From: Promethearchaeota archaeon
Lineage (GTDB): Archaea > Asgardarchaeota > Lokiarchaeia > Sigyniarchaeales > SOKP01
Length of the DNA: 64,000 bases
Assembly: GCA_048937405.1 (NCBI GenBank)
Contig: JBHLNF010000003.1
Span: forward strand, 32,001-96,000
Direction: 5' to 3'
The notes under the pieces are model-generated. The model worked only from the letters and a program-made list of their open reading frames with translations. It was not told the DNA's origin and did no database searches. Shown here piece by piece: positions 15,327-32,849 of this stretch. The first letter of the stretch is position 1; each line of letters opens with the position of its first letter. The translations under genes and the position numbers were made by a program.

Positions 15327-16250
15327 ATGGTACAATCCAATTCAGATCATAAAGAAATTCCTGAAGCAAATGTTATTAAAGAAGAAATTAAATTAAAATT
15401 ACATTTTTGGTTACCTGCGTTCTTCTTTATCTATTTTTGCTCATTTTTAATACCAGGTATAATTTTCATGCTCTATATAATGTTATTTTATTTACCATAT
15501 TTCTTAACAGAAACAGAATTTATTTCTCTTTTTACAAATTTTCCTTCTCTAATTGCCATAATAACAATTCCGTTTGTTATTATAATTAGCTATTTAATCC
15601 ATTTATTTATCGTAGCTATAATAACTCGATGGTTTTGGAGTTTTTCAGAAAAAAGATCACCGACTAAATCAGGAGTGATTCCTAGAAATATCCCAAGTAA
15701 AACTTTAAATTACTATCATTTTCGTAGTTTTATAATAAAATATCCAAAGAATGCATTTTCACGAGGTCCTTTTCCATGGTTATTAAAATGGATGTATAAC
15801 TTTACTAAGACAAACGTAATAGGAAAGGGATCTGTTATAGAGGAACAGCTTGCTGGAGATAGATTTGTAGAAATTGGGGAAAATTGTTACATTGGTACAA
15901 ATGCTGGTGTGAGTTCTCATACTGTTGAAGGTATTTTTGGTAATGTTTCATTTGCAAAAGTAAAAATGAGAAATAATTTCACTACTGCTGGTTTTAATTG
16001 TGTAGCTCCGGGGGTGGATACAGGCGATAATTCATGCTGGTTACCGATGACAGGAGCGACGAAATATAATATCTTGAAAGGAAATGGAGTCTATTTTGGA
16101 GTACCACTTAGGAGAATTTTTAAAAAAAAGATTATGGAGTACCTTCAAGTTACTGAGGATGATTTAAAAAGAGCAGAAAATCTAACTCAAAAGTTAAATT
16201 TATCACAAATTAAGAAAAAGAAAAAAAGAGAGAATATATTAAATGAGTGA
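15327..16250 (+). CDS. Membrane-anchored left-handed beta-helix acyltransferase-like protein, type A
   Basis: 2 TM helices, SPTKSGVIPRN..YYH.R motif, hexapeptide repeats (VIGKGS, EIGENCYIG), SSHTVEG, YFGVP. Confidence 0.8.
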   Translation: MVQSNSDHKEIPEANVIKEEIKLKLHFWLPAFFFIYFCSFLIPGIIFMLYIMLFYLPYFLTETEFISLFTNFPSLIAIITIPFVIIISYLIHLFIVAIITRWFWSFSEKRSPTKSGVIPRNIPSKTLNYYHFRSFIIKYPKNAFSRGPFPWLLKWMYNFTKTNVIGKGSVIEEQLAGDRFVEIGENCYIGTNAGVSSHTVEGIFGNVSFAKVKMRNNFTTAGFNCVAPGVDTGDNSCWLPMTGATKYNILKGNGVYFGVPLRRIFKKKIMEYLQVTEDDLKRAENLTQKLNLSQIKKKKKRENILNE

Positions 16251-17133
16251 AATTTTAGAAACGAATGAGACTGATAAGAATAAAATAGATTATACTGTTG
16301 ATTTTGTTACAAGTAGTGCTATCAGTCGAATTGGTATTAAATTTCTCGCTTTCTATATCCCTATCCTTTGGATGTCTGGATACATGGCGATTGCTGTGTT
16401 TTTTGACTTATCACGATATATTCCATGGTATATAAATTTGTTTTTACTACCTGTATGGTTATTCATTTTATACTTCATTTTTATATTTGGTATTGCGATC
16501 TTCACAAAAGCATTCATTCTTATAATCAATATGATTCATGAACCAAAAGAGGGTATTTTCAGAGCTGAAGAAGGTGACCAAGATTATGAATTTTGGAGAT
16601 TAAGAGTTGAACTTAAAAAATTAGTATTATGGTTTATGAGTAGAGGTCCTATTCCTTGGGTAGTAATGTGGGGATTTCGATGGCTAGGTGTCAGAATGGA
16701 CTTTTCAAGTCATGCTCAGGATGGTTGGGTTGATGGAGAATTTATTGAATTTGGAAGAAATGTTACTGTTGGTCAAGGAACCTGTGTAATGAGTTCAATG
16801 GTTGTAGGAAACTATTTGATAATCAAAAAAGTCATTTTGGGAGATCACACAGTGGTTGGAGGAATGTCAAATATATCTCCCGGTACTATAATGAGAAAAG
16901 AATCTGTTCTTGGTGGTTTTACTACTACCGTTCTTAACCAAATGATAGAACAATCATGGATTTATCTGGGGCAACCTATAGCAAGAAAATTAAAACCAAA
17001 TAAATATGCCGAACAAAGACGAGATATAATAATTAAAAAACAAGTTGATGAAGAAATAAAATACGAAGTTAAACAAGAAGTTAATATTGATGAAGATAAG
17101 AAAAAGTATTTGAATAATAATAGGGTGAATTAA
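16243..17133 (+). CDS. Membrane-anchored LbH acyltransferase-like protein, type B
   Basis: DFVTSSAISR, 2 TM, HEPKEGIF...DYEFW.LR, hexapeptide repeats; overlaps the type A stop. Confidence 0.8.
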   Translation: MSEILETNETDKNKIDYTVDFVTSSAISRIGIKFLAFYIPILWMSGYMAIAVFFDLSRYIPWYINLFLLPVWLFILYFIFIFGIAIFTKAFILIINMIHEPKEGIFRAEEGDQDYEFWRLRVELKKLVLWFMSRGPIPWVVMWGFRWLGVRMDFSSHAQDGWVDGEFIEFGRNVTVGQGTCVMSSMVVGNYLIIKKVILGDHTVVGGMSNISPGTIMRKESVLGGFTTTVLNQMIEQSWIYLGQPIARKLKPNKYAEQRRDIIIKKQVDEEIKYEVKQEVNIDEDKKKYLNNNRVN

Positions 17134-17137
17134 ATAA

Positions 17138-17986
17138 ATGTCTGTACCATCTAGTTTAAACGTTGGACCAAATACTACTCTTATACTAGTAAAGAAGAGA
17201 TACTTAATTTTTTATATATTTTTAATTTGGATAAGTATTTTTTCAATTCAATTTGAATTATGGTTGTTATGGAGACTTTATGAACCAAAATTTATTCATT
17301 TCATATTTTTCTTTCCACCTCTAATATTTATAATGTATTTAACATCTGTATTCGTTTCTTTGTTTTTTGCTAAACTTCTACTAATAATTATTAATTTAAT
17401 TCATAAACCCAAAGAAGGTGTCTTTCTTAGGCATCATTCTGATAAGGATTATAGATATTGGAGTTTGAGAAGTACAATAAAAAAGTGGCCATTATGGTTA
17501 TCTCATAAATTTCCCTTTCCATTTTTAGATAATATTTGTTTAAAAGTTTTTGGAGTTAAAACAAAATACTCAAATTCTCTTTTTGAAGGATTCATAGATA
17601 CTGAATTTATAGATTTTGGCAAGCACGTGATAGTAGGCCAAAGTGCTATAATCCAATCTGCACTTATAGTCGGAAATTTATTTATTTTAAGAAAAACAGT
17701 TATAGAAGACAATGCAGTAATTGGAGCTCATAGTGTTGTTATGCCAGGAACTCATATGAAAAAAAACTCTATTTTAGCAGGAAGTTCAATGACAACTGTT
17801 GGACAAAAATTAGAGGAGAATTGGATTTATTTGGGTGGACCTGCAAAAAAATATAAAAAAAATGTATTTTTAGAAGATGATTTAGAGGAAGTAATTAAAA
17901 AACAAATCGATGAAAAAATAAGATTGGATATAAAATCTGAAGGATTATATACACTAAGGAAAGATAAACAAGTAAAAATTGAATAA
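17138..17986 (+). CDS. Membrane-anchored LbH acyltransferase-like protein, type C
   Basis: MSVP...VKKRYLIF, 2 TM, HKPKEGVF...DYRYWSLR, hexapeptide repeats, YLGGPAK. Confidence 0.8.
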   Translation: MSVPSSLNVGPNTTLILVKKRYLIFYIFLIWISIFSIQFELWLLWRLYEPKFIHFIFFFPPLIFIMYLTSVFVSLFFAKLLLIIINLIHKPKEGVFLRHHSDKDYRYWSLRSTIKKWPLWLSHKFPFPFLDNICLKVFGVKTKYSNSLFEGFIDTEFIDFGKHVIVGQSAIIQSALIVGNLFILRKTVIEDNAVIGAHSVVMPGTHMKKNSILAGSSMTTVGQKLEENWIYLGGPAKKYKKNVFLEDDLEEVIKKQIDEKIRLDIKSEGLYTLRKDKQVKIE

Positions 17987-17988
17987 TT

Positions 17989-18777
17989 ATGAAAATTGGC
18001 TATATTCAGACATCTCCTATTTTTGGGGATAAAGAAAGGAACATTAAACAAGTAGAACAATTAATATCTGAAACAACTGCTGATTTACTTGTATTACCAG
18101 AACTATTTGCAACTGGTTATGCCTTTACATCAAGAAATGAAGCATTATCATTAGCGGAAGATGAGAAGGGTAGAACTGCTAAATTTTTAATGAAATTAGC
18201 TAAAGACACGAAAGCAACCGTAGTTGGTGGTTATATAGAAAAATCAGGAGAAAAAATATATAATGCTGCTATGATTGTCTCAAGCAAAGAAGTGATAGGA
18301 ACATATCGTAAAATTCATTTATATTATAAGGAGAAACTATGGTTTTCTCCTGGAGATAAATCATTTCAAATATTTCGAATCAATGGGATTAATATTGGGA
18401 TAATGATTTGTTTTGATTGGATTTTCCCAGAAACTGTACGGTCTCTTGCTCTTTTAGGCGCAGAAATTATTGCCCACCCCGCAAATTTAGTACTTCCATA
18501 CTGTCAAAATGCTATGGTAACAAGATGTTTAGAAAATAGAGTATACGCTATAACTTCAAATAGGATAGGACGTGAAAAGCGAGGTTCAGATGATTTTAAA
18601 TTTACTGGACGAAGCCAAATAACTTCATATAATGGCGAAATTTTATCTTCAGGCCCAAAAGAGAAAAAATTTATACATGTTGTTGATATTGATATTGATA
18701 AAGCAAAAAATAAAAATCTCAATGATTTTAATAATTTATTTGAAGATAGACGTCCTAATTTTTATTTAAATATCTAA
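17989..18777 (+). CDS. Carbon-nitrogen hydrolase (nitrilase/amidase family)
   Basis: LPELFATGY, YRKIHL and ICFDW give the Glu-Lys-Cys triad. Confidence 0.92.
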   Translation: MKIGYIQTSPIFGDKERNIKQVEQLISETTADLLVLPELFATGYAFTSRNEALSLAEDEKGRTAKFLMKLAKDTKATVVGGYIEKSGEKIYNAAMIVSSKEVIGTYRKIHLYYKEKLWFSPGDKSFQIFRINGINIGIMICFDWIFPETVRSLALLGAEIIAHPANLVLPYCQNAMVTRCLENRVYAITSNRIGREKRGSDDFKFTGRSQITSYNGEILSSGPKEKKFIHVVDIDIDKAKNKNLNDFNNLFEDRRPNFYLNI

Positions 18778-18808
18778 AAAAGTAAAAAATAAAAAATAAA
18801 AAATTAAA

Positions 18809-19627
18809 TTATTGCGGTTGTAATATCCCTGAAAACGCTAACCATGCTAGCAATGATTTTGCTACTAGGCTTAAGACTATATAAATACGTTCACCGAAAA
18901 GATAATCCTTCCACTTGCCTATTCCTTTATATTGAAGTATTTGGTTAATGGCAAAACTATTAAACAATATCAGATAAGTATAAAATATCCAATATACAAA
19001 ATCAGGTATACCTTCCGCATCCACACCATAAAAGTAGCCTAAAATCACGATCCAAGGAATAGCGCCAGATATACATCCCAAAATGAAAGGCATCCAATTA
19101 GTTTTTTCAGTATATTGATTAACAAGCTCCATCATATATCCAAACATTATCATCATAGCATTCAATACAAAAATCATAAGCAGTGACCAGAACTCCCAAA
19201 CTCCAAAAAGCAACGATAGAAAAACAATCATAATTGAACTAGAAAAAGCATATTCGTACCAACGATATGGATTAAAACCCTTTTTCAAATTGTTATTATA
19301 CTTTTCATTCAAGGGATAAGCAATTAAGAAATGAGCTAAGGCAGATATTAATAAGAATGAAGCCAAAACTGCTCCAAAATATGAAACAGTAAATAATACC
19401 TGAGGATCTGGGTATATATTAAAAGAATCTGGTGGAACAATCTCATAAGTTAAATAAAAAGTATAAATATCTCTAGAGAAATCTAAAATAAGTCCTACAG
19501 TGAGCATTAGTATTCCTTGTATTAGGTGAAGGATTCCCATATTTCTGTTAAACTTTTGCAAATAATCGAAGGATATATTAGAATTAGCTATAATTTCTTG
19601 TCGTTCTTTAAAATTCATTTTAACCAT
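18809..19627 (-). CDS. Heliorhodopsin
   Basis: 7 TM; LHLIQG, AHF, NPYRWYEYAFSSSIM, SFAINQ, ERIYIVLSLVAKSLLAW with the retinal-binding Lys. Confidence 0.93.
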   Translation of the reverse strand: MVKMNFKERQEIIANSNISFDYLQKFNRNMGILHLIQGILMLTVGLILDFSRDIYTFYLTYEIVPPDSFNIYPDPQVLFTVSYFGAVLASFLLISALAHFLIAYPLNEKYNNNLKKGFNPYRWYEYAFSSSIMIVFLSLLFGVWEFWSLLMIFVLNAMMIMFGYMMELVNQYTEKTNWMPFILGCISGAIPWIVILGYFYGVDAEGIPDFVYWIFYTYLILFNSFAINQILQYKGIGKWKDYLFGERIYIVLSLVAKSLLAWLAFSGILQPQ

Positions 19628-19818
19628 ATTTTTTTTAATTTAAAATTTCTAATTTTAATTATTCAGAGCTCAAACTTAAATTATCTTTCTAGAAATTATT
19701 AAAATTTCATTTTAATTAGTTTTAGAATAAACGAATTTAGGGCAAATTTATAATGATTAATTAATAAATCAAAAAATAAAGTACTAGTTATCATAATTAT
19801 TAAGTACTTTTTAGATAT

Positions 19819-19841
19819 TCATTAGGTTTAAAACCTAATGA
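19819..19841. repeat. Perfect inverted repeat, 11-bp arms
   Basis: TCATTAGGTTT-A-AAACCTAATGA between the Prx-like gene and heliorhodopsin. Confidence 0.7.
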
Positions 19842-19920
19842 TATATTGATATGGAAAAGTGTGGCTAACTTTAAAGAATAAAATCTCATTTTTTATTATT
19901 TTATTCTCACCAAATCATTA

Positions 19921-20394
19921 TTAATTGTTAATTTTTTTAAGAATTTTTAAAATTTCATCGTTTTCCGGGATATCATGCATATTTTTTCCATAATATGCAT
20001 ATTGAATAATCCCTTTCTTGTCAATTATTAATAGTCCAGGCATTCGACCCAATTTAATCCACCTTTTTTCTTGTTTTAACATCGTAGAAACTTTCTTTGA
20101 CTCATCATAAAAAATAGCATATTTTCGCGCATATTTCTGTTCCATTTTTTTTGCATTTTTTTCATTATCTACCAAGATTGGATATAAGAAAGTATCTAAA
20201 TTTTCAAATTTATCAATATCTCTTCTTAATCTAGCAGCATGCCATCGACAAAATGGTCAATTGATATCTCTAAATAACACAATCACAACGTTTTTTTTAT
20301 TTTCAAAATCTCTAATATTTAATGTTTCACCTCTAGAATTTGGCAGACTAAATTCATCGATTCTAGTACCAACTAAATTGAATTTATCTTTCAA
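19921..20394 (-). CDS. Peroxiredoxin-like (AhpC/TSA, PrxL) selenoprotein with UxxC; Sec at codon 46
   Basis: The frame extends upstream of the 84-aa track ORF through TGA (20257-20259): LKDKFNLVGTRIDEFSLPNSRGETLNIRDFENKKNVVIVLFRDIN-U-PFCRWHAARL...PGLLIIDKKGIIQYAYYG; TTG start inferred. Confidence 0.85.
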
Positions 20395-20578
20395 TTTGAT
20401 ATCTCTTTGGTTTTTATTTATTTTTTTGATAAAAAAAGATCAAAATGATTTAATAATATCTCTATTAAGAATTATAAACTTCAACTCCTAAAATAAAATC
20501 ATGATTATGAAACAAAACCATAGATAAAATAATAACTCTAGATTATTTTTATTGTTTCATTTTTATTTTTAGCGGGAT

Positions 20579-22231
20579 TCAAGCTTCTAAAACATAAAGT
20601 GGCCATTTTTTTAAAACACCTTTAGGATTTTTCCCACTTCTGACTTTCTCTAACATCTCAGAACGTGTAGCTAAGAAGTCAACTGGATTATTCTTAATTA
20701 ATTCTATTTCTATATCATTATTCAAGATAGCTTCTTTAAAATTTTCATTTCTAATACATTCAAGTAAGACTTTCTTATAGCTATTTAAATCAGAACAATT
20801 TTTTTCTTTATTACTATAAAGAAATAATTTCAAACTATTTTTGACAGAATTTTTATAATTTACTAATAATAGGGAATCAATATTTAAGATACAATTTTCC
20901 TTCAAACAATTTAATAATAAACGAGGATTTATAATTTCGAAATCAGGAAAATTGAAATAATCACCAGCAAAAACTTTATAATACGATTTAATATCAATTT
21001 CTTTTAATAGTTTTATAGGATATTTTAATTCAAAAGTTGAACGTAAAATAGTTCCATCTATTTGAGGTAAACCTTCCTGATTTTTTATCGAAATAACATC
21101 ACCCATGTCTATATTAATTAAAACTCTTGAGTTATTAAGCCTAGAAACATAAAGCTTGCCAAATTCATTTTTAGTTCTAGAAATTAAAGCTTTTCTTCCT
21201 TTATATTCTAATACTGGAAGTGTTAAAGGAAAAATGTACATCCTGTTTAAACGTGATAATGTAAAATCACCTTCATTTATACTAGCAGCAAATGGTCCTA
21301 TTTCAGAGGCTACATAAAGATTAATAAATTTTTCTTGACCTTTCTCCCAATTCATTAATTTTCTAATTAATTTCCAATCAAATTCAGAGAGTGAGCTTAT
21401 ACTGAATATTAAGGTAGCATTCCTTATTTTTTCAGATAATCTTTTTTGAATATCTTTTGAAATAGAATCTATTCCCTTTTTTTTTATGTCGAGTAAAAAT
21501 TTCTCCGTAAGAGGATTGTCGGTTTGTTTTATCGAATTAAGTGAACTTTTTAATCCAATTTTAAGTCTGTTAATATCTGCCCATCCCAAGATAGTTATAG
21601 CAGGAGCGGAAATAACGGAGACATTCTCAATCATTAAAATATTAGAAAGGATCTCTAAATTCTTTGAATTTTTGTATTCATAAAAAGAATAAGACTGTGG
21701 CTTAATAATAGAGAGCATTATTCGTTGGGAAAATTCTGAAGAATAAAGTGACACATATTCTTTATCTTCATACTTATTAAATCCATCAAATTTAAGGCGT
21801 GATGGGACAAAAATAATAGCTGATGATCTAGAATTTAATCCACTTGATTCAAAAATTGCTTGCATTCCAGGAGCCCATTGCCTTTTTACGATATCATGTG
21901 CCATATAGAACCATTTTAACATAGATAAATTACTATTAGTAGTACCTGAAGTATGACAGAAAATTAAAGGACTAAAATCGTCGGTTCTATCTAAAAATTT
22001 TTTTAAATCTATCGAAAAATGGCTAGAAGAAGTAGTTTCAATTTTTACTTTTTCTATAATATCTTCAACAGATGATAATCCTGAAAGATTCAATGCTAAT
22101 TCTTCATATTCTTCTTTAGAACGAATTTCCAGCCAATCTCGCCAACTTACTGACTTAATGTTTGAAAAAGAAGCATTAAAGGCTTCTTGAACTTTAACAT
22201 CAAAATCAAATGAGTTCAAAATATTCTCCAA
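20579..22231 (-). CDS. GH3/PaaK-like adenylate-forming (ANL superfamily) enzyme
   Basis: P-loop FCHTSGTTNS, YVASEIG and IDMGDVI, matching the three ANL/GH3 core motifs. Confidence 0.65.
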   Translation of the reverse strand: MENILNSFDFDVKVQEAFNASFSNIKSVSWRDWLEIRSKEEYEELALNLSGLSSVEDIIEKVKIETTSSSHFSIDLKKFLDRTDDFSPLIFCHTSGTTNSNLSMLKWFYMAHDIVKRQWAPGMQAIFESSGLNSRSSAIIFVPSRLKFDGFNKYEDKEYVSLYSSEFSQRIMLSIIKPQSYSFYEYKNSKNLEILSNILMIENVSVISAPAITILGWADINRLKIGLKSSLNSIKQTDNPLTEKFLLDIKKKGIDSISKDIQKRLSEKIRNATLIFSISSLSEFDWKLIRKLMNWEKGQEKFINLYVASEIGPFAASINEGDFTLSRLNRMYIFPLTLPVLEYKGRKALISRTKNEFGKLYVSRLNNSRVLINIDMGDVISIKNQEGLPQIDGTILRSTFELKYPIKLLKEIDIKSYYKVFAGDYFNFPDFEIINPRLLLNCLKENCILNIDSLLLVNYKNSVKNSLKLFLYSNKEKNCSDLNSYKKVLLECIRNENFKEAILNNDIEIELIKNNPVDFLATRSEMLEKVRSGKNPKGVLKKWPLYVLEA

Positions 22232-22349
22232 AATAGTAATCTATATTCCAGATAATATAACAATCATATGTGTGATTATTTCTTTTATCTAATAGAATTA
22301 ATAAAGAAAATAAAAATTAAATTGTTTTTTCAAGTATAATTTATAGAAA

Positions 22350-22880
22350 TCAATTAATTCCATATAAACCAGTCTCAGAATCTTGAAAAATTGGCAAGTG
22401 TGGTGGTAGATAGGTAAAAATTATCATTAGTAATCCTAACCCTACAATAACTAGCCAGGAAACAATATTTATCCATTTGGGAAGTGTATCTAAGCTAATA
22501 ATTCTATAACTAATCAATTGACCAATAATAACACCTATAAAAAAACTTAATATATCGATTATAAGAATTTCAGTACCTATTATTGCTGTATAAGTATAAA
22601 AGACAATTAAAATTGTACCAATACTTATTAATGCAGACAGAGCTTTTCCAATTATTATATTGTTTGCTTTATCTTTTATAAAATGACATTCTATTAAAGA
22701 AAGAAAGATTAAAGGCCAATAGGGAAGTTTTAAATGTTCCCATACGCTTTCATTGACAGGAGCAATTGCTCCAATAGGGGACCAAGAAAAAAGCCATTCG
22801 AATAGAAAATGGAACAAAGTACCAGTAATTAATATAAAGATTATACCAGCAATTTCCCATTTTAGTATACTGTTTTTCAT
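22350..22880 (-). CDS. DUF6512-like membrane protein
   Basis: GTLFHFLFEW...PVNESVWEHLKL; about 5 TM; C-terminal TYLPPHLPIFQD...YG. Confidence 0.7.
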   Translation of the reverse strand: MKNSILKWEIAGIIFILITGTLFHFLFEWLFSWSPIGAIAPVNESVWEHLKLPYWPLIFLSLIECHFIKDKANNIIIGKALSALISIGTILIVFYTYTAIIGTEILIIDILSFFIGVIIGQLISYRIISLDTLPKWINIVSWLVIVGLGLLMIIFTYLPPHLPIFQDSETGLYGIN

Positions 22881-23157
22881 TTTTCAATCAATATTATTGT
22901 AATTCAATTTAAAAAATTCTCATAAATAGATTATAATAAGAAATATACCAAAACTCTGATAATCTAAAACAGAATTTGTTTAAAAAAAATTTGGTTTTAT
23001 CTTAATAAAAAATATCTAACAGAAAGTTTATTATAATCAGAGTTTATTGTAATTATTTTATAATTTATATTTCAATTACTTAAAGCCTAAGAAAAGAGAA
23101 ATAATAAGAGAAAAAAATCATTTAAGGATATAAGGTAGGAAGCAAATTTTATAAATA

Positions 23158-23654
23158 TCAGATTTTTTCATATCTTTCAACTTCTACTTTCCCCCACGCT
23201 TCGAATTTCTTGTCCAATTCATCAATAAAGTTGTATATCGTTTCTTGATTAATGATAAGGATGTCGTTATCAATCTTGAACCCATATTCTTTTGCCCATT
23301 CAAATATTTTTGAATTAAATTCATCTTTATTCATCAGGAGAGGGCATTTCTCATCATTTCAAGGTTTAGTTTTGAAGATATACTCGTCATTTCTCTCAAC
23401 TTTTCTAAAATCTTCTTGTCCTTTTTTCTTTCAATTCTTTATTTTACTTCCCCCTCTGGAGATTTTACCTTGACGAAAAAATCACCCTCAATTACAAAAC
23501 CATATTCCATTGCCCATTTGAGAATTTTGACATCAAATAATCTTTGATAATCTGGAATTTTATAATCAATATTAAGATACTTTTTCATCAAGTTAATATT
23601 AATTCTGTCAGATGTCCGGAACATTTCTTTTGCTTTTTTTTCTAATTCTGTCAT
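23158..23654 (-). pseudogene. Disrupted gene with two tandem copies of a Loki-type helical domain (KI.(E/K)WA.EYGF.I)
   Basis: The frame continues past TAA at 23439-23441 (RIERKKDKKILEKLREMTSISSKLNLEMMRNA). After a frameshift near 23340 it reads LLMNKDEFNSKIFEWAKEYGFKIDNDILIINQETIYNFIDELDKKFEAW...KI*. Confidence 0.7.
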
Positions 23655-23956
23655 TTTTCAATTTAAGTAAAATTTATTTTACTATTTATTAATTAAATAT
23701 ATCTAACGTATATAAAAGTTAGTTTAAGGGTGTAATACATTATTAGAACTCATATGATTACCTACTAATTCAAGTATATTTCTAAAGAACAGTGTTTGAA
23801 TTCTAACATCTACTCTCTGTGTGGTAATCTATGCTTTATCTCAACAAAAAAGTTCTAATTGAAAAATAATGTAATTAGATTTTATTTGGATTACTTTCTA
23901 ATTTATACTTTAAGTATCAAAAATCTAAAAAAAATTGAAGTAGTTTAAGAAAAAAT

Positions 23957-24142
23957 TCATTTATGGATATTAACATTTTTCTTTAAATCATTTAATGCTG
24001 TTATTATAATTTCCAATATTGTTTCTCTAACTTTTGGATTTCCCTCGGTAAAATTCTTTATCTTGGAAACTATATCATCTATAAAATTCATTTGTTCGTA
24101 ATTTAATCCCATCATTTCCGCCTTTTTCACGATTTCAATCAA
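23957..24142 (-). CDS. Small helical hypothetical protein (possibly 5'-truncated)
   Basis: 61-aa ORF with TTG start; an in-frame ATG at 24163 is cut off by TAA at its third codon. Confidence 0.4.
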   Translation of the reverse strand: MIEIVKKAEMMGLNYEQMNFIDDIVSKIKNFTEGNPKVRETILEIIITALNDLKKNVNIHK

Positions 24143-24320
24143 ATTTTTTCTGTTTTATGCCATCAAATCATAAACTAGAATATTAATAAATATAGATATA
24201 ATGTTTTAAATTTTTTTCTCCTCAATTAATAAAATTTTCACGATAAAAGCGTATTAATAAGGTAATCGAAGTAGAAATTTGTATAGTTCAAAAACATAAC
24301 AAATTTTTTTGATCTTACGA

Positions 24321-25286
24321 TTATGGTGTTAATTTATGTAACCCCTGTGAGAAAATCTTTTCTTTATACCATGATATTTGATTTCGAAGTACCGCTTCCA
24401 AACTAGTATGAGGTTCATAACCCAATATCTGCCGGGCTTTATTAATATTAGCTCGAGTATGTAACTGATCTCCTGGTCGTTTAGGTTTCATATCAAAACG
24501 AGCTTTTTTTCCCATTATTTTTTCAACAATAGTGATACCTTCCTTGGTTGTGATTTCTTTATCAGAACCAATATTAAAAATCTCGCCAATACATTTTTCA
24601 GGATGCTTAAGAACTAATAAAAAACCAGTCAAGATATCGGAAATTGCTGTATAACTACGTGAGTGACTTAGACTATCTTCATATAATGGAAAAGGCTCAT
24701 CTATTAAAATAGAACGTATAAGCTTTGTGTATAACTTCTCTGGTCGCTCACGTGGACCTAGAACTGAGAAGATTCTTAAAGAACATGCAGGTAATCCTTT
24801 TTCTCTTTGATAGACTAAAACTAATTGTTCAGCGGCTAATTTAGTAACACCATAGTATGAAGTCGGTTTTGGAGCACTATCTTCCGCATCATATGCAAAT
24901 TTACCATAAATGGATGATGTAGCAACATTGACAAAACATTTTAAACCAGAGAGAAATTTTACAGCCTCCAGTAATTTATAAGTTGCATTTAAGTTATTGC
25001 GTACATATTCTTCATATGCAGTTGTGCTTGAAATACCAGGTTGAGCAGCTAAATGAAAAATAAACTGGACATTTTTAACAACATCAGATAAATCATCACT
25101 AACTAAATCAATTTCTAAAATCTGTACACCTTTAGCGGAAATTTCTTCCGCATTAAGACGTTTTAATTCAGGAGCGTAATATGGATTGAAATTGTCAATA
25201 CCTATGACTTCATGCCCCATTTCGGATAAAGTTTCAGATAAGTGAGAACCTATAAATCCTGCAGCACCAGTAACAAGAATTTTCAT
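24321..25286 (-). CDS. NAD-dependent nucleotide-sugar epimerase/dehydratase (UDP-glucuronate epimerase-like)
   Basis: TGAAGFIG, HLAAQPG, TSSIYG, YGVTK, GPRERP. Confidence 0.9.
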   Translation of the reverse strand: MKILVTGAAGFIGSHLSETLSEMGHEVIGIDNFNPYYAPELKRLNAEEISAKGVQILEIDLVSDDLSDVVKNVQFIFHLAAQPGISSTTAYEEYVRNNLNATYKLLEAVKFLSGLKCFVNVATSSIYGKFAYDAEDSAPKPTSYYGVTKLAAEQLVLVYQREKGLPACSLRIFSVLGPRERPEKLYTKLIRSILIDEPFPLYEDSLSHSRSYTAISDILTGFLLVLKHPEKCIGEIFNIGSDKEITTKEGITIVEKIMGKKARFDMKPKRPGDQLHTRANINKARQILGYEPHTSLEAVLRNQISWYKEKIFSQGLHKLTP

Positions 25287-25462
25287 AATTCAATCGTATT
25301 TAATTTAAAAAGTATTTATATCTTACTTTTAATAATTTAAAGAAAGTCAAAAAGATAATGTATTACAATTTGGATAATAAATTAAATATTTTTCAGAAAA
25401 TATTTAAAATTCTTTCCTTCTTGATTTAATCTATTATCATATTTTTTTGGTAACCCTAAATA

Positions 25463-26470
25463 ATGAAGGCTGCTGTATTTAATGGGAAAGAAATAACGAT
25501 AAGAAATGTATCTGAACCTAAAATAAAAGGCTCTGAAGTTTTGGTTCGTGTTAAAGTAGCTGGAATCTGTGGTACAGATCTTGCTATCGTTAATGGAGAT
25601 CTCCCAACACCAACTCCAATTATTTTAGGGCATGAATTTGTTGGTATAGTTGAAAAAGTAGGTAAGGATGTTGATAAATCTTGGATAAATAAGAGAATAA
25701 CTTCAGAAATTAATACTAATATTGATTTTAACTGTTATTATTGCAAATTAGGGTTATATACTCAATGTGTTTCTCGTAAGGCGATTGGAATTGATATTAA
25801 CGGTGCTCTAGCTGAATATATTGCTTTAGAATCATACTTATTACATGAAATTCCAGATTCTATTTCAGATGATGATGCTACATTTATTGAACCTCTTGCT
25901 GCCGCCTTCCAAACCTTCGAAATGATGCCTATAGGTGAAGATGATAACGTTATCGCTATTTTTGGGCTTGGTAAGCTTGGATTATTGATAAGTCAAGTCG
26001 CTAAATTAAAAGGATTAGAAATAATTGCGGTGGATGAGTCAGAAAGGAAATTAAAGTTAGCAAAAAAATTGGGAGTTAAAGAAATAATTAATAGATTACA
26101 GGAAAAAAACATTCCGAAAGTAATACAAAACTTCACAAATGGGCTAGGAGCAGATATTGTGATAGATGCGACAGGTAATCCGAATGCATTAGGGGAAATA
26201 GTTGCTTCTTGTAGAACGAGAGGAAAAATACATATAAAAAGTACACATGGTTTAGAAACACCTATTAATCTCACTGATATTGTTGTAAGAGAATTAACTC
26301 TTTATAGTAGTAGATGTGGTCCATTTGATAAAGCTATAGAGGGAATAAAATCGGGAAAAATAAAAGTTAATGAATTAATATCTAAGAAATTTCAATTAAA
26401 TAATATAAAAGAAGCCATTGAATCTTATAAAATAAGCAAGGATCATATTAAGACGATAATTCAAATATAA
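25463..26470 (+). CDS. Zn-dependent alcohol dehydrogenase (MDR family)
   Basis: GICGTD, GHEF, EPLAAA, GLGKLG. Confidence 0.9.
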   Translation: MKAAVFNGKEITIRNVSEPKIKGSEVLVRVKVAGICGTDLAIVNGDLPTPTPIILGHEFVGIVEKVGKDVDKSWINKRITSEINTNIDFNCYYCKLGLYTQCVSRKAIGIDINGALAEYIALESYLLHEIPDSISDDDATFIEPLAAAFQTFEMMPIGEDDNVIAIFGLGKLGLLISQVAKLKGLEIIAVDESERKLKLAKKLGVKEIINRLQEKNIPKVIQNFTNGLGADIVIDATGNPNALGEIVASCRTRGKIHIKSTHGLETPINLTDIVVRELTLYSSRCGPFDKAIEGIKSGKIKVNELISKKFQLNNIKEAIESYKISKDHIKTIIQI

Positions 26471-26587
26471 AGCTTATGTATTCTTACCAGTTTTAGTTAA
26501 AATTTAAATTTAGAAAAAAAAACATTGAATTTTTTAGAAACAAACTCTTAATTACTAATAATATAGTAAAATCAATGATTTTATAGA

Positions 26588-28414
26588 ATGCAAAAAGTTG
26601 TACAACAATCATCAGAAAGTATTTCAAAAGAAGATGTTCCAAAAGAAGAAATAAAATTTCAATACTTTTGGTATCTAGTTATTTTTTTTACAATATACTT
26701 AATATCGTTGATAGTACCCGCATTTATATTCATGACTTATATATTCCTCTTTTTTTTACCATATTTTTTAAAAATTAGAAATTTTTTTACTCTTTTTACT
26801 GAAATTAATTCAATTATAGCTTTAGTATCGATGCCATTAATTATCATTGGTTGTTATTTTATTCGATTGTTTTTAATTGGATTCATTACTCGTGGATTTT
26901 GGACTTTAAGCGAAAAAAAATCACCAAGCAAAAATGGTATAATACCTAGGAATTTTTCGAGTAAAACATTGAATTATTACCACATTAGAAGCATGATGAT
27001 TAAATACGGAAAGAATATGTTTACTAAAGGAATTCTACCATGGTTTAGTAATTGGTTTTTTAACTATGTGGGATCAATTAAAATTGGAAAAGGTACAACT
27101 TTAGAAGAAAGTATAATGAATGATAAATTTGCTATTGTTGGAAATAATTGTTATTTTGGCGTCAATTCTGCTTTAGCTAGTCATATGGTAGACGGTACTC
27201 TTGGAAATATTAATTATTTCCAAGTAAAGATCGGAGATAATGTAACAACTGCAGGAACAAATCTAATAGCAGCGGGATCAGAGGTAAATGGGAATTCCTA
27301 TTTACTTCCTTTAGCTTCAACTGGTAAACACAGTATGATAAAGAAAGAAAATAATTATTTTTTTGGAATCCCTATGAGAAGAATTTTCAGAAAGAAATTG
27401 ATGAAGTATTTAGATTTAACTCCAAGACATTTTGATATTAATGAAAATATTGAGAAGTACAGGGATAAAAAAACAATAAATAAATTAAAAACTGAGATAA
27501 ATAATATTAGACCACAACCTGAGAGTAAACTTAAAATTGAGAAGTCTCAAGAAGAAAAAATTGATATAAATAAGTTGACTGAAAATGATTTAAAAATTGA
27601 TTTTACAACAAGTAGTGCCATTTCAAGAGTTAATATTAAATTCTTAGCGGTATATCTTCCAATTTTTTGGCTTTCTGGAATGGTAGACACTATAGTTTTC
27701 TATACATTTATATATTATGTTCCAAATGGTTTTTTAATGGCATTTTTTCTTCCAGCAATGATAATTATTATGTGGTTTGTATTTATTATGGGTTGTTTCT
27801 TTTTTAGCAAACTATTTTTAGTGTTGATAAATTTAATCCATAAGCCAAAAGAAGGCATATTTAAGGCAGAAATTGGAGATACTGATTTTGAATTTTGGTG
27901 TTTGCGTACTGAATTAAAAAAAATTGTTCTGTGGCTCATAAGAAATTGGCCTATTCCTTGGATGGATATTTTAGCTTTTAAATGGTTTGGAATAAAGATG
28001 ACTTTAAACAGTTCATTATATGATTCATGGTGTGATGGTGAGTTTATTACATTTGGTCGAAGAGTTTTGGTGGGTCAAGGAGCTTCTATAAATTCTTCTA
28101 TGGTATTAGGAAAGTACTTAATTATAAAAAGAGTAATATGTGGTGATTATTCTCTTATTGGTGGACAATCCACAATCTCACCTGGTAGTATCATAGGGAA
28201 GGAAACATTTGTTAGTGCGATTTCAAATACTGTTTATAATCAGGTACTTGAATCGGGCTGGCTCTATATGGGAATTCCAGTTACAAAATTAAAAAGAAAT
28301 AAATATGCTAAAGAAAGAAGAGATATAATCATAAAAAGAGATATAAATGAACAAATGAAATTTGAAATCGAACATGAAGTAAATGTTGATGAAGATAAGA
28401 ATCATGTGGCATAA
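26588..28414 (+). CDS. Fused A-B membrane LbH acyltransferase-like protein
   Basis: N-half aligns with 15327-16250 (SPSKNGIIPRN, LASHMVDG); C-half from DFTTSSAISR (~27599) aligns with 16243-17133. Confidence 0.82.
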   Translation: MQKVVQQSSESISKEDVPKEEIKFQYFWYLVIFFTIYLISLIVPAFIFMTYIFLFFLPYFLKIRNFFTLFTEINSIIALVSMPLIIIGCYFIRLFLIGFITRGFWTLSEKKSPSKNGIIPRNFSSKTLNYYHIRSMMIKYGKNMFTKGILPWFSNWFFNYVGSIKIGKGTTLEESIMNDKFAIVGNNCYFGVNSALASHMVDGTLGNINYFQVKIGDNVTTAGTNLIAAGSEVNGNSYLLPLASTGKHSMIKKENNYFFGIPMRRIFRKKLMKYLDLTPRHFDINENIEKYRDKKTINKLKTEINNIRPQPESKLKIEKSQEEKIDINKLTENDLKIDFTTSSAISRVNIKFLAVYLPIFWLSGMVDTIVFYTFIYYVPNGFLMAFFLPAMIIIMWFVFIMGCFFFSKLFLVLINLIHKPKEGIFKAEIGDTDFEFWCLRTELKKIVLWLIRNWPIPWMDILAFKWFGIKMTLNSSLYDSWCDGEFITFGRRVLVGQGASINSSMVLGKYLIIKRVICGDYSLIGGQSTISPGSIIGKETFVSAISNTVYNQVLESGWLYMGIPVTKLKRNKYAKERRDIIIKRDINEQMKFEIEHEVNVDEDKNHVA

Positions 28415-28429
28415 TAAATCGTTTAGATT

Positions 28430-28825
28430 TTAGTTTATTTTTAAATTTAATTGCTTTTTTAAAAAACTCTTTAAATTTTGGCAATTAAGTTTGTATTCTT
28501 TTCTGTTTTTATAAAAAAGATTAGTTCTTGGGCAATCCTTATCAAGTGTGCATTTCTTTTTGCTAGTGTCATAAATCATTGGATAGAATCTACATCCCTG
28601 AGGTCGAGATTTATAAATCTTACATTTCATTAAGTTATTGTCAAAAAAGACGCATTTTTCTATAGAATTTTTTAACTGAAAAAAACCATTTTGATTTTTA
28701 AAGATGAATTCTTCCTCTTCTAATTTTTTTGGATAGTTTTGGATTATTAAATCAATATCCTGCTGAGATAAAATCATTTCTGTATTGATACAGCATTTTC
28801 CACAAGACTCACATTTGTTTTTCAT
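28430..28825 (-). CDS. YkgJ-family cysteine-cluster (CxxCxxCC) protein
   Basis: CESCGKCC...CVFF...CKIYKSRPQGCRFYP. Confidence 0.85.
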   Translation of the reverse strand: MKNKCESCGKCCINTEMILSQQDIDLIIQNYPKKLEEEEFIFKNQNGFFQLKNSIEKCVFFDNNLMKCKIYKSRPQGCRFYPMIYDTSKKKCTLDKDCPRTNLFYKNRKEYKLNCQNLKSFLKKQLNLKIN

Positions 28826-28957
28826 TGTAAATTATTATTTTTGTGTTAATTTAATAAATTTTAAAGGAAGGTAAATATCTAGTAAAATATAATAATTATT
28901 AATTGCTTTTTAATTGAGTAAAATATAATCTAAAATGACAATTAAGACAAAAAAGTA

Positions 28958-30829
28958 ATGAACAGAGAAGATAAAGAAACGAAAACTCTTGAAGATGAAG
29001 AAAACACTGATGAAGTATTAAAAGAAGAAGTTAGTCTACAATTTCATTTATATATTTTTATTTTTGCTATAATTTATTATGTCTCATGGATATTACCTGG
29101 ATTTCTTTTTTGGTTTTATTTTATGATACCATTTCGCATATTTTTTCTTGAAAATTTGAATTTTTTCTCAATTTTTATAAATATTAATTCTCTGATAACT
29201 CTATTATTAATGCCAATTGTCCTTATTAGCTGTTATCTCCTCCATTTGTTATTAATTGGTTTAACAACACGTATTATTTGGCAAATTACTGAAAAGACTT
29301 CACCATCAAAATCAGGTGTTATACCAAGAAATATTAGAAGTAGAGCCGCAAATTATTATCATATTAGGAGTTTTATGATCAAATATGGAAAAAATACTTT
29401 TACTAAAGGAATGTTCCCTTGGTTATCTAATTGGTTTTTTAGTACAGTCGGTTCAAACAAAATTGGTAAAGGTACAACAATAGAAGAGTCTGTAGGTAAT
29501 GATAAATTTATTGATATTGGAAAAAATTGTTATGTTGGTGTAAATTCTACATTAGCGAGTCATTTACTTCAAGGAATCTTTGGCAATATTACTTATTTTG
29601 AGATTAAGGTAGGAGATAATGTTACAACTGCTGCGATGAATCAGGTTGGTCCAGGAACAGAACTAAATGATAATACTTTTTTATTACCATTAGCTTCTAC
29701 AAATAAACATAGTATTGCCAAGGGAGGTTATTATTATGGGATTCCATTTAGAAAGATCTTTAGAAAAAAAATTATCAATTATCTAGAATTATCACCTAAG
29801 GATTTGGAAAAGAACGATAATATTGAAGGATATAAGGATAAAAAACTCATTAAGGAACTTAAAAAAAAGAAATCTTTGGAAAAAGAAACTGATTCTAATC
29901 TTAGAGATGTGGGTGTAATATCTGAGGAAACGGAAAAACAATTCGAGTTTAATAAATTCTCAAATGAAGATTTAGCTATTGATTTTGCCACTAGCTCAGC
30001 AATAAGTCGAATCAATATAAAGTTTTTAATTGTATATTTACCACTCTTATGGGTTGCTGGATTAATAACTACAATAATTTGGTATTGGTATTCTGAAAAT
30101 GTACTGAGCACAATGAAATTTCGATTAGAATTTTTCCTTTTCTTTCCATTAATTTTATTCGGTCTAATATATATATTTATTGTTGCATGCTTGGTTTTTA
30201 GTAAGCTACTTTTATTGTTAGTTAATCTCATTCATAAACCTAAGGAAGGAGTATTTAAAGCTAAAAAAGGAAATACTGACTATGAATTTTGGATATTGAG
30301 AACAGTTTTAAAAAAAATTGGTTTATGGTTTATGAGAAATTCTCCTTTACCTTGGACTGATGTAGTTGCTTTAAAATTATTTGGGGTTGATATGGATTCA
30401 TCAAGTCATTTACCTGATGCGTGGTGCGATTCAGAATTTATAAAATTTGGCAGAAAGAACCTAATTGGTCAGGGTGCTTTAATAATGTCAAGTATGGTAA
30501 TTGGAAAATATTTACTAATAAAAAAGGTTTTTTTTGATGATTACGTAATGGTTGGTGGTCATACAACAATTTCTCCAGGTACAATTATAGGTAAAGAATC
30601 TGTAATAGGTGCTCTTAGTTCCACAACATATAATCAAGTTTTAGAGTCAGGATGGGTTTACTTTGGATTTCCAGCAATTAAGTTAAAAGAAAACAAGTAT
30701 GCAGAAGAAAGGAGAGATATTATCATCAAACGTGATGTAGATGAATCAAAAAAATTTACGGCAACACATGAAGTAAACATTGATGAAGATAAAAAAGAAT
30801 TAATAAAAACTCAAAAAGAAGAGGTATAA
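28958..30829 (+). CDS. Fused A-B membrane LbH acyltransferase-like protein (second)
   Basis: SPSKSGVIPRN, LASHLLQG; B half from DFATSSAISR (~29981). Confidence 0.82.
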   Translation: MNREDKETKTLEDEENTDEVLKEEVSLQFHLYIFIFAIIYYVSWILPGFLFWFYFMIPFRIFFLENLNFFSIFININSLITLLLMPIVLISCYLLHLLLIGLTTRIIWQITEKTSPSKSGVIPRNIRSRAANYYHIRSFMIKYGKNTFTKGMFPWLSNWFFSTVGSNKIGKGTTIEESVGNDKFIDIGKNCYVGVNSTLASHLLQGIFGNITYFEIKVGDNVTTAAMNQVGPGTELNDNTFLLPLASTNKHSIAKGGYYYGIPFRKIFRKKIINYLELSPKDLEKNDNIEGYKDKKLIKELKKKKSLEKETDSNLRDVGVISEETEKQFEFNKFSNEDLAIDFATSSAISRINIKFLIVYLPLLWVAGLITTIIWYWYSENVLSTMKFRLEFFLFFPLILFGLIYIFIVACLVFSKLLLLLVNLIHKPKEGVFKAKKGNTDYEFWILRTVLKKIGLWFMRNSPLPWTDVVALKLFGVDMDSSSHLPDAWCDSEFIKFGRKNLIGQGALIMSSMVIGKYLLIKKVFFDDYVMVGGHTTISPGTIIGKESVIGALSSTTYNQVLESGWVYFGFPAIKLKENKYAEERRDIIIKRDVDESKKFTATHEVNIDEDKKELIKTQKEEV

Positions 30830-30834
30830 TTATA

Positions 30835-31782
30835 ATGAGTGTACCAAATACAATGAGAGTAGGACCTTTTACACCCACAGTGTTAGTAAAAAAAAGATAT
30901 TTAATATTCTATTTTTTCTTAATTTGGATAAGTATTATCCCTATCCTTTTAGAATTTTGGGTATATTGGCATTTTCTATGGAGTTATGAAAGACCCATTC
31001 ACTTCTATACTTTTCTCCCCCTTTTATTTTTTGGAATGTATGTATCAATAGTATTTTTCTCTATTTTTTTTGCTAAAATATTGTTAATAATAGTTAATGC
31101 AATACATAAACCACGAGAAGGTATATTCTTACGCATTCCAGAAGATAGAGATTATAGATACTGGAGTCTTCGAAATACAATTAAACGATGGCCTATTTGG
31201 CTAGCACATAAATTTCCATTTCCTTTCTTAGATAATATCTGCTTTAAAGTATTCGGCGTAAAAACGAAGTTTTCAAATTCCCTTTTTGAAGGATGGGTTG
31301 ATACAGAATTTATAGAATTTGGCAAAGATGTTGTAGTTGGGCAGGGTGCAATTGTCCAATCGGCAGTAATTATTGGGAATTTATTGATAATTCGAAAAAC
31401 TGTGATTGAAGATGATGTAAGGATTGGCTCACACGCAATAGTTATGCCTGGTACTCATATTGGAAATAAATGTATCTTAGCAGCTAATTCTGTAACAACA
31501 GTTGGACAGGTTTTAGATAAAAATTATGTATATGTAGGTATTCCAGCAAAAAAGTTCAAAAAGAACTATTTCTTTGAAGATGGATTGGAAACCAAAATTG
31601 GTTACGTAGAAGATATCGAAAAATTACGAGAAAAATATGAGGAGATTTATACAAAACGTTATGATGAACTTACTCGCAAGGATCGTAGAGAATTAAAAAG
31701 AGAAAAAAAAGAGGGAGAAAAAAAGAGATTTGATACTGAGCAAGAGGAATGGGAAGATCCTGATGATGGTTTCAATATATAA
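30835..31782 (+). CDS. Membrane-anchored LbH acyltransferase-like protein, type C (second)
   Basis: Close paralog of 17138-17986 (HKFPFPFLDNIC.KVFGVKTK.SNSLFEG). Confidence 0.82.
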   Translation: MSVPNTMRVGPFTPTVLVKKRYLIFYFFLIWISIIPILLEFWVYWHFLWSYERPIHFYTFLPLLFFGMYVSIVFFSIFFAKILLIIVNAIHKPREGIFLRIPEDRDYRYWSLRNTIKRWPIWLAHKFPFPFLDNICFKVFGVKTKFSNSLFEGWVDTEFIEFGKDVVVGQGAIVQSAVIIGNLLIIRKTVIEDDVRIGSHAIVMPGTHIGNKCILAANSVTTVGQVLDKNYVYVGIPAKKFKKNYFFEDGLETKIGYVEDIEKLREKYEEIYTKRYDELTRKDRRELKREKKEGEKKRFDTEQEEWEDPDDGFNI

Positions 31783-31820
31783 CTATCTTTTAATTACCTA
31801 TATAATCGAAAAATTAAATT

Positions 31821-32528
31821 TTACTCTAAAATAAAGTACATTCTTCTATTATTTTTTCCTTTATTAACAGTTTTAATTATTTCAATTTTTCCAATTTCTT
31901 TAAGATTACTAATATGAGTCCCCCCATCAACTTGTTCATCGATATCCCCTATTCTAACAATACGAAATTCCTTAATTTTTTCTGGTAATCCTACGGCTAA
32001 ACGTGCTAATTCTGGTTTTCCTATTACTTCTTCTTTTGACATATAATCTATAGTAATTAATAGATCCTGTTCTATAATTTTGTTTGCCTCATCGACAAAA
32101 TCCCGTAGTTTTTCAGGAGAATAATCTTGCATTGAGAAATCCATTCTCGTTTTATCTAATTCAATTTGATTACCTGTAATTTTTGCATCAGCTCTTTTAT
32201 AAAGAATACTGCTAATTAGATGTGAAGCTGTATGATATCGCATGAATGTATACCTTCTTTCCCAATCAATTTCACAACTAACTTCATCTCCCTCCTTTAA
32301 TCCAATTTTATCTACTTCATGACTTATTTCTCCAGAGAATTTACCAACATAGACGACTTTAAATTGTTGATCATTTTTTTTAATAAGACCCTCATCCCAA
32401 GGTTGACCTCCTCCCTTGGGATAAAATGCTGTTTGTTCAAGAGTTATATATTTTCCATCTTTAACACCAACAACCTTAGTATTCCAAGTCTTAAGATAAG
32501 CATCATCCATATATAAAGCTCTCTTCAT
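31821..32528 (-). CDS. alaXM: Alanyl-tRNA editing protein AlaX-M
   Basis: LYMDDAY, TAFYPKGGGQPWDEG, MRYHTASH, DGGTH, KGKNNRRMY. Confidence 0.9.
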   Translation of the reverse strand: MKRALYMDDAYLKTWNTKVVGVKDGKYITLEQTAFYPKGGGQPWDEGLIKKNDQQFKVVYVGKFSGEISHEVDKIGLKEGDEVSCEIDWERRYTFMRYHTASHLISSILYKRADAKITGNQIELDKTRMDFSMQDYSPEKLRDFVDEANKIIEQDLLITIDYMSKEEVIGKPELARLAVGLPEKIKEFRIVRIGDIDEQVDGGTHISNLKEIGKIEIIKTVNKGKNNRRMYFILE

Positions 32529-32849
32529 AAAAAAAGAAAAGTATCCAAATTTAAAATATTAACTTTTATCAGTCTTAGGATTTCTCAGAAAATTATAATT
32601 TATATTTTATATTAATTCAGTAGAAAGACCATAATCTCAAAATAAATAAATCTTAAAGCTTTAAAGCAATTTTAAAAGTATCACATAAGGGAATGAGGTT
32701 AAATATACATCATATATTTATTCAATCTCTATTTTTGTGATTTAAATTATAAATATATAAATATGATTAGAGCAAAATAATAATCGAAGTTTTATTCAAG
32801 TATAGAATTTCAAATTTTCAATTTAAAAAAAAATTAATGTTGATTTTGT

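Follow-up and report, generated by a model that had tools for sequence, protein, structure and literature searches.

A 64,000-nucleotide stretch of the genome of a Promethearchaeota archaeon (assembly GCA_048937405.1, contig JBHLNF010000003.1, positions 32,001 to 96,000; hereafter the window) was found to carry six genes encoding eight copies of a membrane-anchored left-handed beta-helix (LbH) module, which fall into three sequence classes termed A, B and C. The reading that we favour, with a probability of roughly 60%, is that A, B and C modules join into a membrane A·B·C ring of LbHs with one active site located in class A, that this ring uses an acyl-CoA donor and a membrane-associated acceptor, and that its triplication arose independently of the one seen in the terminal domain of the polylysine synthetase Pls/PosA. 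The system would most likely be a heterotrimeric relative of the Pls polymerisation unit, divided over several genes, with no carrier and one active site, working as an acyl-CoA-dependent membrane acyltransferase.

Module anatomy, sequence classes and the conserved histidine

The six genes occur as three singles (A1, B1 and C1), a fused pair (AB2) and a second fused pair followed by a single (AB3 and C3). All the corresponding open reading frames (ORFs) were recovered where the first-pass annotation had placed them (Table 1), and its division of eight modules into three classes, arranged as A+B+C, AB and AB+C, was clear in BLAST comparisons; the reading frames of both C1 and C3 are intact. Spacing was tight, with an 8 nt overlap shared by the A1 and B1 ORFs and gaps of 4 nt between B1 and C1, 2 nt between C1 and the following hydrolase gene, and 5 nt between AB3 and C3. 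When the eight modules were compared all against all, identity within classes ranged from 44 to 62% (E 1e-100 to 1e-129), corresponding to 44–56% among the three A modules, 50–57% among the three B modules and 62% between C1 and C3. Classes B and C shared 33–39% identity, and class A shared 17–26% with B or C, with E-values (1e-7 to 1e-18) far better than chance would give.

According to hydrophobicity analysis, all eight modules bear two hydrophobic helices close to their N-terminal start. The second transmembrane (TM) helix, TM2, is followed in each module by a stretch rich in K and R, which by the positive-inside rule would place the LbH in the cytoplasm. In the alignment, the invariant columns beyond this stretch follow the order P..G...Y..(W/H)..R, a PW motif, the hexapeptide coils and a terminal Y.G.P. 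The hexapeptide family PF00132 (cut-off 27 bits) was detected above its threshold in C3 (41.6 bits) and AB3 (37.0 bits) and below it in C1 (25.4 bits) and AB2 (19.4 bits), and the Pfam scan gave no detection of it in A1 and B1.

A profile built from the His-bearing modules found its best match in E. coli LacA (1kqa, E 2.6e-21), and the invariant His of these modules aligned to LacA His115, the general base of that enzyme. Among the Asgard modules, His was present at this column in 54 of 66 class A, 2 of 28 class B and 3 of 56 class C members; in the window, the B modules have Ser and the C modules Ala at the same position. The conservation table gave the LacA-type residue of class A as the only conserved LbH His, with none in B and C, and the other conserved His of B and C was situated in an HKPKEG motif immediately downstream of TM2. 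The LacA-type His, together with Asn and Lys, is retained by nearly all single-module relatives. Additionally, two bacterial proteins composed of three modules (P0084 and P0088) have it in module 2 only, and of the three units of Pls/PosA (written here Pls C1, Pls C2 and Pls C3 to distinguish them from the window genes), His was found in 120/120 Pls C3, 6/120 Pls C1 and 0/120 Pls C2 sequences. From this distribution we infer a single active site per ring, built in class A from the His, Asn and Lys, B and C being conserved partners that take no part in catalysis. An identity as gamma-carbonic anhydrase (gamma-CA) was also considered and rejected, no metal-binding His triad being conserved.

Kinship with the Pls/PosA terminal domain

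The similarity to the Pls terminal domain (TIGR02353) that had been proposed from the first reading was borne out by profile, bridging and shape comparisons. Weak matches to TIGR02353 that start upstream of the LbH were obtained for five of the six proteins (E 2e-4 to 2e-13), namely AB3 (49.6 bits, E 2.1e-13), C3 (38.4 bits, E 4.7e-10), AB2 (34.8 bits), C1 (31.2 bits, E 7.6e-8) and B1 (19.7 bits, E 2.2e-4). A1 gave no match at E <= 0.01, and none of the six reached the curated cut-off of 423.1 bits. When the 17 modules of this genome were aligned by hhalign with 39 modules from Pls C1, Pls C2 and Pls C3, the probability was 99.4% (E 4e-21), with 177 aligned columns that extend from TM2 through the helices and the LbH. 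The bacterial stand-alone triple fusions P0084, P0088 and P0121 (with an SDR domain) scored 168–184 bits against TIGR02353, the bridging proteins P0084 and P0088 alone reaching 181–184 bits, and P0084 aligned with full-length Pls/PosA over approximately 90% of its own length (E 1e-28). Likewise, Pls/PosA clusters were the nearest in the ESM Atlas shape search, with a TM-score of about 0.5 over 450–494 aligned residues, that is, over more than one module, and the fold search of the PDB returned single-LbH enzymes only (maltose and galactoside acetyltransferases, AntD and gamma-CA). On these alignments the module is considered a true, distant homologue of the unit repeated in the Pls/PosA terminal domain.

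The terminal domain of PosA has been described from an AlphaFold model as comprising six TM helices, all bent, and three LbHs of five turns each in near three-fold packing, with two helices and a strand after each TM pair (PMC10522769). PDB sequence searches with AB3, C3 and P0084 as queries found no solved Pls/PosA structure, and a literature search on stand-alone or split Pls-like domains, TIGR02353 and membrane LbH heterotrimers gave nothing relevant.

Regarding the origin of the three classes, a tree of 146 modules, which calls for some caution given the deviant composition of the Pls sequences, placed Pls C1, Pls C2 and Pls C3 in one clade (SH-aLRT 99) with each of them monophyletic, the bacterial triple fusions in another clade, and the Asgard A and B/C modules among single-module relatives. 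Forcing class A to group with Pls C3 was rejected in the approximately unbiased (AU) test (dlnL 154, p-AU 7.6e-5; IQ-TREE, LG+F+G4, 55 rows x 266 columns). These results indicate that the Asgard triplication is separate from that of Pls and that A, B and C are not orthologues of Pls C1, Pls C2 and Pls C3, so the idea that they rebuild the Pls arrangement was given up in favour of an independent triplication. By the same phylogeny, the bacterial triple fusions would represent a third. Their genomic contexts consisted of either glycosyltransferase, SDR and dTDP-sugar genes or FemAB-like and EamA genes. Three independent triplications, each keeping a single His-bearing module, would amount to the repeated evolution of a one-site pseudo-trimer from a three-site homotrimer. 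For Pls/PosA itself, two predictions follow: its polymerisation domain would have descended from a LacA-like homotrimer, and only the His of Pls C3, kept in 120/120 sequences, would act as the catalytic base.

Proposed ring composition, donor and acceptor

Natural fusions of three modules were found in other Asgard metagenome-assembled genomes (MAGs; proteins P0002, P0271 and P0308), and in a set of 218 modules, the close Asgard forms had A-B junctions in 15 proteins, C-A junctions in 35 and the C-A-B arrangement in 3. All of them fit the single cyclic order A-B-C-A, and B-A, A-C and C-B junctions were absent from these close forms. In every locus read (contigs C19 and C25 of our genome, L012 and L014), a CA fusion was followed by a B-type single, and AB fusions were followed by a C gene in the window and in L013, L015 and L016. 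The AlphaFold2 (AF2) model of the natural CAB fusion P0002, computed from an alignment of 28 in-register fusions, formed a single compact body (mean predicted local distance difference test, pLDDT, 82.3; predicted template modelling score, pTM, 0.84) in which the LbH of each module is preceded by a TM hairpin, a short strand and two helices, in agreement with the description of PosA (PMC10522769). An alignment that included single modules was dropped, as B- and A-type singles fell onto module 1.

Because the AB, CA and CAB fusions, the tight operons, the presence of just one His-bearing class and the AF2 prediction for the triple fusion converge on it, a heterotrimer of A, B and C without fused AMP-binding (A) or PP-binding (T) domains appears to be the best reading; to that extent the pseudo-trimer first suggested was retained, as an assembly of its own and not as a reconstituted Pls trimer. 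In the proposed pseudo-threefold ring of membrane-anchored LbH acyltransferase, the hairpins of the three modules would provide six TM helices, each module would also add a cytoplasmic LbH, and the three LbHs would pack side by side like ordinary LbH trimers. The modules would be delivered as singles (A1, B1, C1 and C3) or as fusions (AB2 and AB3), with CA fusions serving elsewhere in this genome and CA or CAB fusions in other Asgard MAGs.

Several observations weigh against this arrangement or its catalytic interpretation. The fusion order lends it weak support because it probably reflects two or three independent fusion events, and AF2, given one fused chain and an alignment of 28 rows, is obliged to pack the LbHs together. 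AB2 is followed in the window by no class C gene of its own, and the gene content suggests that C3 is probably a common partner of AB2 and AB3. Additionally, Gln replaces the His in 12 of the 66 class A modules, which make up a subclade of CA fusions; within these Gln-type fusions, to which the comparison was confined, the C module is also devoid of His. The His may thus be dispensable, or some of the rings could lack activity, and certain LbH N-acyltransferases work without a catalytic base. Finally, the neighbouring genes differ between the six module loci of the genome, so that gene context is of little help in identifying the substrate.

An acyl-CoA thioester is the most likely donor, a proposal favoured because carrier domains are lacking outside one megasynthase, because CoA-ligase genes are among the neighbours, and because of the kinship to LacA. 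Neither A nor T domains were found at the six module loci, and the PP-binding and ACPS domains of the genome were confined to a single 3512-aa ORF on contig C22. The genome contains 22 AMP-binding genes; a Succ_CoA_lig/CoA_binding_2 gene adjoins the single module on contig C20 and another lies inside the L015 block, and AMP-binding genes are situated downstream in L015 and L016. The acceptor is probably membrane-associated and could be the head group of a lipid, a lipid-linked glycan or a small amine. Acylation of lipids or glycans, also among the functions proposed in the first-pass annotation, appears more likely than the synthesis of an amino-acid polymer. The latter had been among the functions originally envisaged and was set aside in view of the loci being free of carrier and A domains, the sole carriers of the genome belonging to one megasynthase elsewhere, and the nearest solved relative being the acetyl-CoA-dependent LacA.

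The 3512-aa frame itself (C22, approximately 24000–34600, minus strand) comprises three tandem PP-binding and two ACPS-like domains, a composition that identifies it as a predicted megasynthase with a built-in phosphopantetheinyl transferase; with a contamination of 5.7% in the bin, its contig could be foreign. In the wider family, domain content points to members that are carrier-fed. One archaeal relative, P0137, has a module fused to a PP-binding domain, with ACPS and AMP-binding genes 2 kb away. A protein of this description, 1821 aa long and encoded on a public archaeal contig (L007:4934-10399), has a single TM+LbH module along with a PP-binding domain and long repeats of the right-handed beta-helix (NosD-like) type; genes for ACPS and AMP-binding proteins follow 2 kb downstream, and it looks like a carrier-fed, surface-directed member.

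Among the alternatives, the least remote, although still unlikely, is that the classes form separate homotrimers (A3, B3 and C3, or a two-ring (AB)3), that is, paralogues that differ in substrate. Homotrimers are the ordinary form of LbH enzymes, and many of the single-module relatives, among them those of other Asgard families, are found alone in their genomes. The present genome itself has one isolated module on contig C20 and a pair on contig C28, and the A-B linker, charged and approximately 70 residues long, is compatible with two rings. However, B and C are without the His/Asn/Lys set that the single-module relatives keep, the classes occur 1:1:1 in tight operons and natural triple fusions, and a parallel single-His pattern is seen in Pls, in which all three modules belong to one chain. 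The loss of the catalytic His in two of three classes, with Gln in a subclade of the remaining one, would also suit a non-enzymatic membrane scaffold or regulator derived from a degenerate LbH trimer, similar to the gamma-CA-like heterotrimer of plant complex I. In line with such a role, gamma-CA and the CA/CAL chains of complex I were among the best PDB sequence matches, and neighbours vary between loci. We regard this as the most improbable of the readings, since His/Asn/Lys is kept in 54/66 class A modules across deep divergence, the family is multi-copy and occurs in all 68 sampled genomes of the archaeon's taxonomic family, with motifs outside the LbH strongly conserved, and a metal-binding His triad of the gamma-CA type is not conserved.

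A further possibility retains the A·B·C ring and makes it a Pls-like polymerase or amide synthase acting in trans, in which the PaaK/GH3-like enzyme at 20579-22231 would activate an amino or acyl acid, as an adenylate or a CoA derivative, and the ring would condense it, either repeatedly or with an amine, into a secreted or surface polyamide or an N-acyl compound. Homology to the Pls polymerisation unit is consistent with this, as are the position of the ANL-fold gene, which is found within the module super-locus in the window as well as in genera g1 and g4 and in L015, the formation of amides by GH3-type enzymes, the P0137 fusion with its ACPS and AMP-binding neighbours, and the FemAB-like gene and EamA exporter genes adjoining the triple fusion P0084. 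The rings would then be a carrier-free, split counterpart of polylysine synthetase, building or exporting a polyamide or an N-acylated surface or lipid compound by means of the six-helix bundle. We consider this improbable as well. Carrier domains occur at none of the six loci nor in the genome outside the one megasynthase, the other four loci have no adenylating neighbour, PaaK-type enzymes normally make CoA thioesters, and the triplication is independent of Pls. Furthermore, the ANL-like gene, which is absent from the syntenic blocks of L013 and L016, was detected in 38/60 genomes of the family to which the archaeon belongs, against 68/68 for the modules. The GH3/ANL ligase named in the first-pass annotation is borne out by its fold and is lacking in about a third of the related genomes. 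The acyl-CoA-dependent ring remains our preferred interpretation, with the ANL-like enzyme as a possible, non-obligate supplier of the activated acyl group.

Gene neighbourhood, distribution and comparison with known systems

Table 1. Coordinates of the module genes, the residues aligned to LacA His115 and the neighbouring genes in the window (LbH, left-handed beta-helix; TM, transmembrane helix)
Feature	Coordinates (nt)	Strand	Length or basis
A1: class A module (2 TM + helices + LbH), presumed catalytic subunit	15327..16250	+	307 aa
A1 His198	15918-15920	+	LacA-His115 column
B1: class B module, Ser185 at His position	16243..17133	+	296 aa
C1: class C module, Ala175 at His position	17138..17986	+	282 aa
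Carbon-nitrogen hydrolase (nitrilase/amidase superfamily)	17989..18777	+	PF00795 E 5e-45
Adenylate-forming (ANL superfamily, PaaK/GH3-like) enzyme, 550 aa	20579..22231	-	fold, motifs
NAD-dependent sugar epimerase/dehydratase	24321..25286	-	PF01370 E 2e-48
Zn-dependent alcohol/polyol dehydrogenase (Tdh/inosose-dehydrogenase-like)	25463..26470	+	PF00107/PF08240
AB2: class A (His199) and class B modules fused	26588..28414	+	608 aa
AB2 His199	27182-27184	+	LacA-His115 column
CxxCxxCC small metal-binding protein, between AB2 and AB3	28430..28825	-	PF03692 E 1.6e-13
AB3: class A (His202, Asn221, Lys250) and class B (Ser512) modules fused	28958..30829	+	623 aa
AB3 His202	29561-29563	+	LacA-His115 column
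C3: class C module, Ala177 at His position	30835..31782	+	315 aa

The neighbours named in the first-pass annotation (a C-N hydrolase, an epimerase, an alcohol dehydrogenase (ADH) and a GH3/ANL-like enzyme) are all present in the window, the identity of the last one being supported by its PaaK/GH3-like fold. The A1-B1-C1 operon probably includes the C-N hydrolase gene as its fourth member; the order A-B-C-CN_hydrolase is repeated in MAG L015, and the score of the product against NF040852 was 300 bits, under the cut-off of that family. The Zn-dependent ADH gene (TIGR00692, 177 bits, under cut-off) lies immediately upstream of an AB fusion in the window (AB2) and in L013, L015 and L016, where the CxxCxxCC gene was also found at the equivalent position. 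The core kept across these three MAGs is composed of the Zn-ADH, an AB fusion, the CxxCxxCC gene on the opposite strand, a further AB fusion and C. The epimerase, which resembles dTDP-glucose 4,6-dehydratase and GalE with NCBIfam scores under the cut-offs, was rejected as a component of the system because the syntenic blocks of L013, L015 and L016 do not contain it.

The 550-aa ANL-like protein gave no sequence match in Pfam (E 0.1), NCBIfam (E 1e-5) or the PDB. Its AF2 model (pLDDT 91.5, pTM 0.89) had PaaK1, the BT_0428 acyl-CoA ligase and GH3.15 as best Foldseek matches (probability 1.0, E 2e-12 to 7e-11), and the lead from the ESM Atlas agreed with a PaaK/GH3-like fold. The two-domain fold, the P-loop (S/T)SGTT and the C-terminal catalytic Lys that characterise ANL enzymes were all found, and invariant elements of the family include HTSGTT (H89-S91-G92-T93-T94), YVASE (Y302-V303-S305-E306) and the C-terminal K533. 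Its homologues are all from Asgard archaea and are annotated as "hypothetical proteins".

Other genes of the window were recorded along with these. A heliorhodopsin gene (18809-19627, minus strand; PF18761, E 1e-93) is situated between the A1-B1-C1-hydrolase operon and the ANL-like gene, and another adjoins the ADH-AB-CxxCxxCC-AB-C block in MAG L013. Directly downstream of C3, a gene at 31821-32528 (minus strand) encodes an AlaX-like stand-alone editing protein composed of the C-terminal part of tRNA-synt_2c and tRNA_SAD; an AlaX-type gene is also located approximately 10 kb from the AB-C block in L016. Upstream, the gene for a class II (B12-dependent) ribonucleotide reductase (1246 aa; 10955-14695, minus strand) is split by an intein with an HNH endonuclease domain. 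At the other end of the window, an ORF of 20,619 codons starts (54445-64000, plus strand) and runs uninterrupted to C13:148304. Its GC content is 0.36–0.44, compared to approximately 0.27 in the surroundings, with a strong positive GC skew, and its first 3185 aa, rich in S, D, G and T, have no Pfam match; it is probably a giant surface protein. The high-GC end of the window had been considered as rRNA, which was rejected because no Rfam match was obtained and the region corresponds to the start of this ORF.

The three copies of the system initially counted are correct for the window; genome-wide, a hidden Markov model (HMM) of the eight window modules identified 17 modules in six places. Contigs C19 and C25 each bear one two-module fusion and one single, assigned by class HMMs and the tree to a C-A fusion followed by a B-type single, contig C28 carries two singles with a metallophosphoesterase gene immediately after them, and contig C20 carries one single. 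The C20 single and the C28 pair may constitute a dispersed triad, because modules resembling those of C20 and C28 are fused in the database protein P0074. Among the neighbours at the six loci are genes for a C-N hydrolase, a histidine phosphatase, a metallophosphoesterase, an ADP-forming CoA-ligase-like protein and GDPD. A small GTPase gene of the Gtr1/RagA and Arf-like type (L003:5891-6805, minus strand) is situated two genes away from the C28 pair; such GTPases are eukaryote-signature proteins typical of Asgard archaea.

In relatives, for which the best seven candidates per genome were scored, strong module matches were obtained in 68/68 sampled genomes of the archaeon's family and in 7/7 genomes of a neighbouring family of the same order, and the remaining families of the phylum gave weak matches or none. 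Five genomes from other families had 2–5 single modules each, mostly dispersed. A search with C3 against 1.84 billion cluster representatives gave 146 clusters at E <= 1e-10. The members come from MAGs named as Promethearchaeota or Lokiarchaeota types, and their existing annotation is limited to "hypothetical protein" or "isoleucine patch" enzyme. The family is a sizeable unexplained piece of the membrane biochemistry of Loki-type Asgard archaea, at a time when the lipids and surfaces of Asgard archaea are under close study.

When compared to known systems, LacA and Maa are the best solved matches in both sequence and fold, with the class A His corresponding to LacA His115 and an identical coil-loop-coil layout around it. 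The Asgard system differs from these soluble homotrimers with three active sites by its TM hairpins, its three diverged classes of subunit and what appears to be a single active site. The gamma-CA heterotrimer of plant complex I (CA1/CA2/CAL) is likewise a membrane-attached LbH assembly in which some subunits are devoid of catalytic residues, a likeness of analogy only; gamma-CA is a zinc hydratase and is without a TM hairpin of the Asgard kind. The bacterial triple fusions P0084, P0088 and P0121 share with the Asgard proteins the lack of A and T domains and have three modules each, of which module 2 alone bears the His, and they differ in being single polypeptides that form a separate clade. 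Pls/PosA shares the unit composed of a TM hairpin, a short strand, two helices and a five-turn LbH, its three-fold use to give a six-TM pseudo-trimer, and a His kept in one of three modules (Pls C3 in that family, class A in Asgard archaea). In contrast to Pls/PosA, the Asgard proteins have no N-terminal A or T Pfam domains, their modules are split in the window as 1+1+1, 2 and 2+1 instead of three per polypeptide, and their donor is probably an acyl-CoA and not an aminoacyl group carried as a thioester on a carrier domain.

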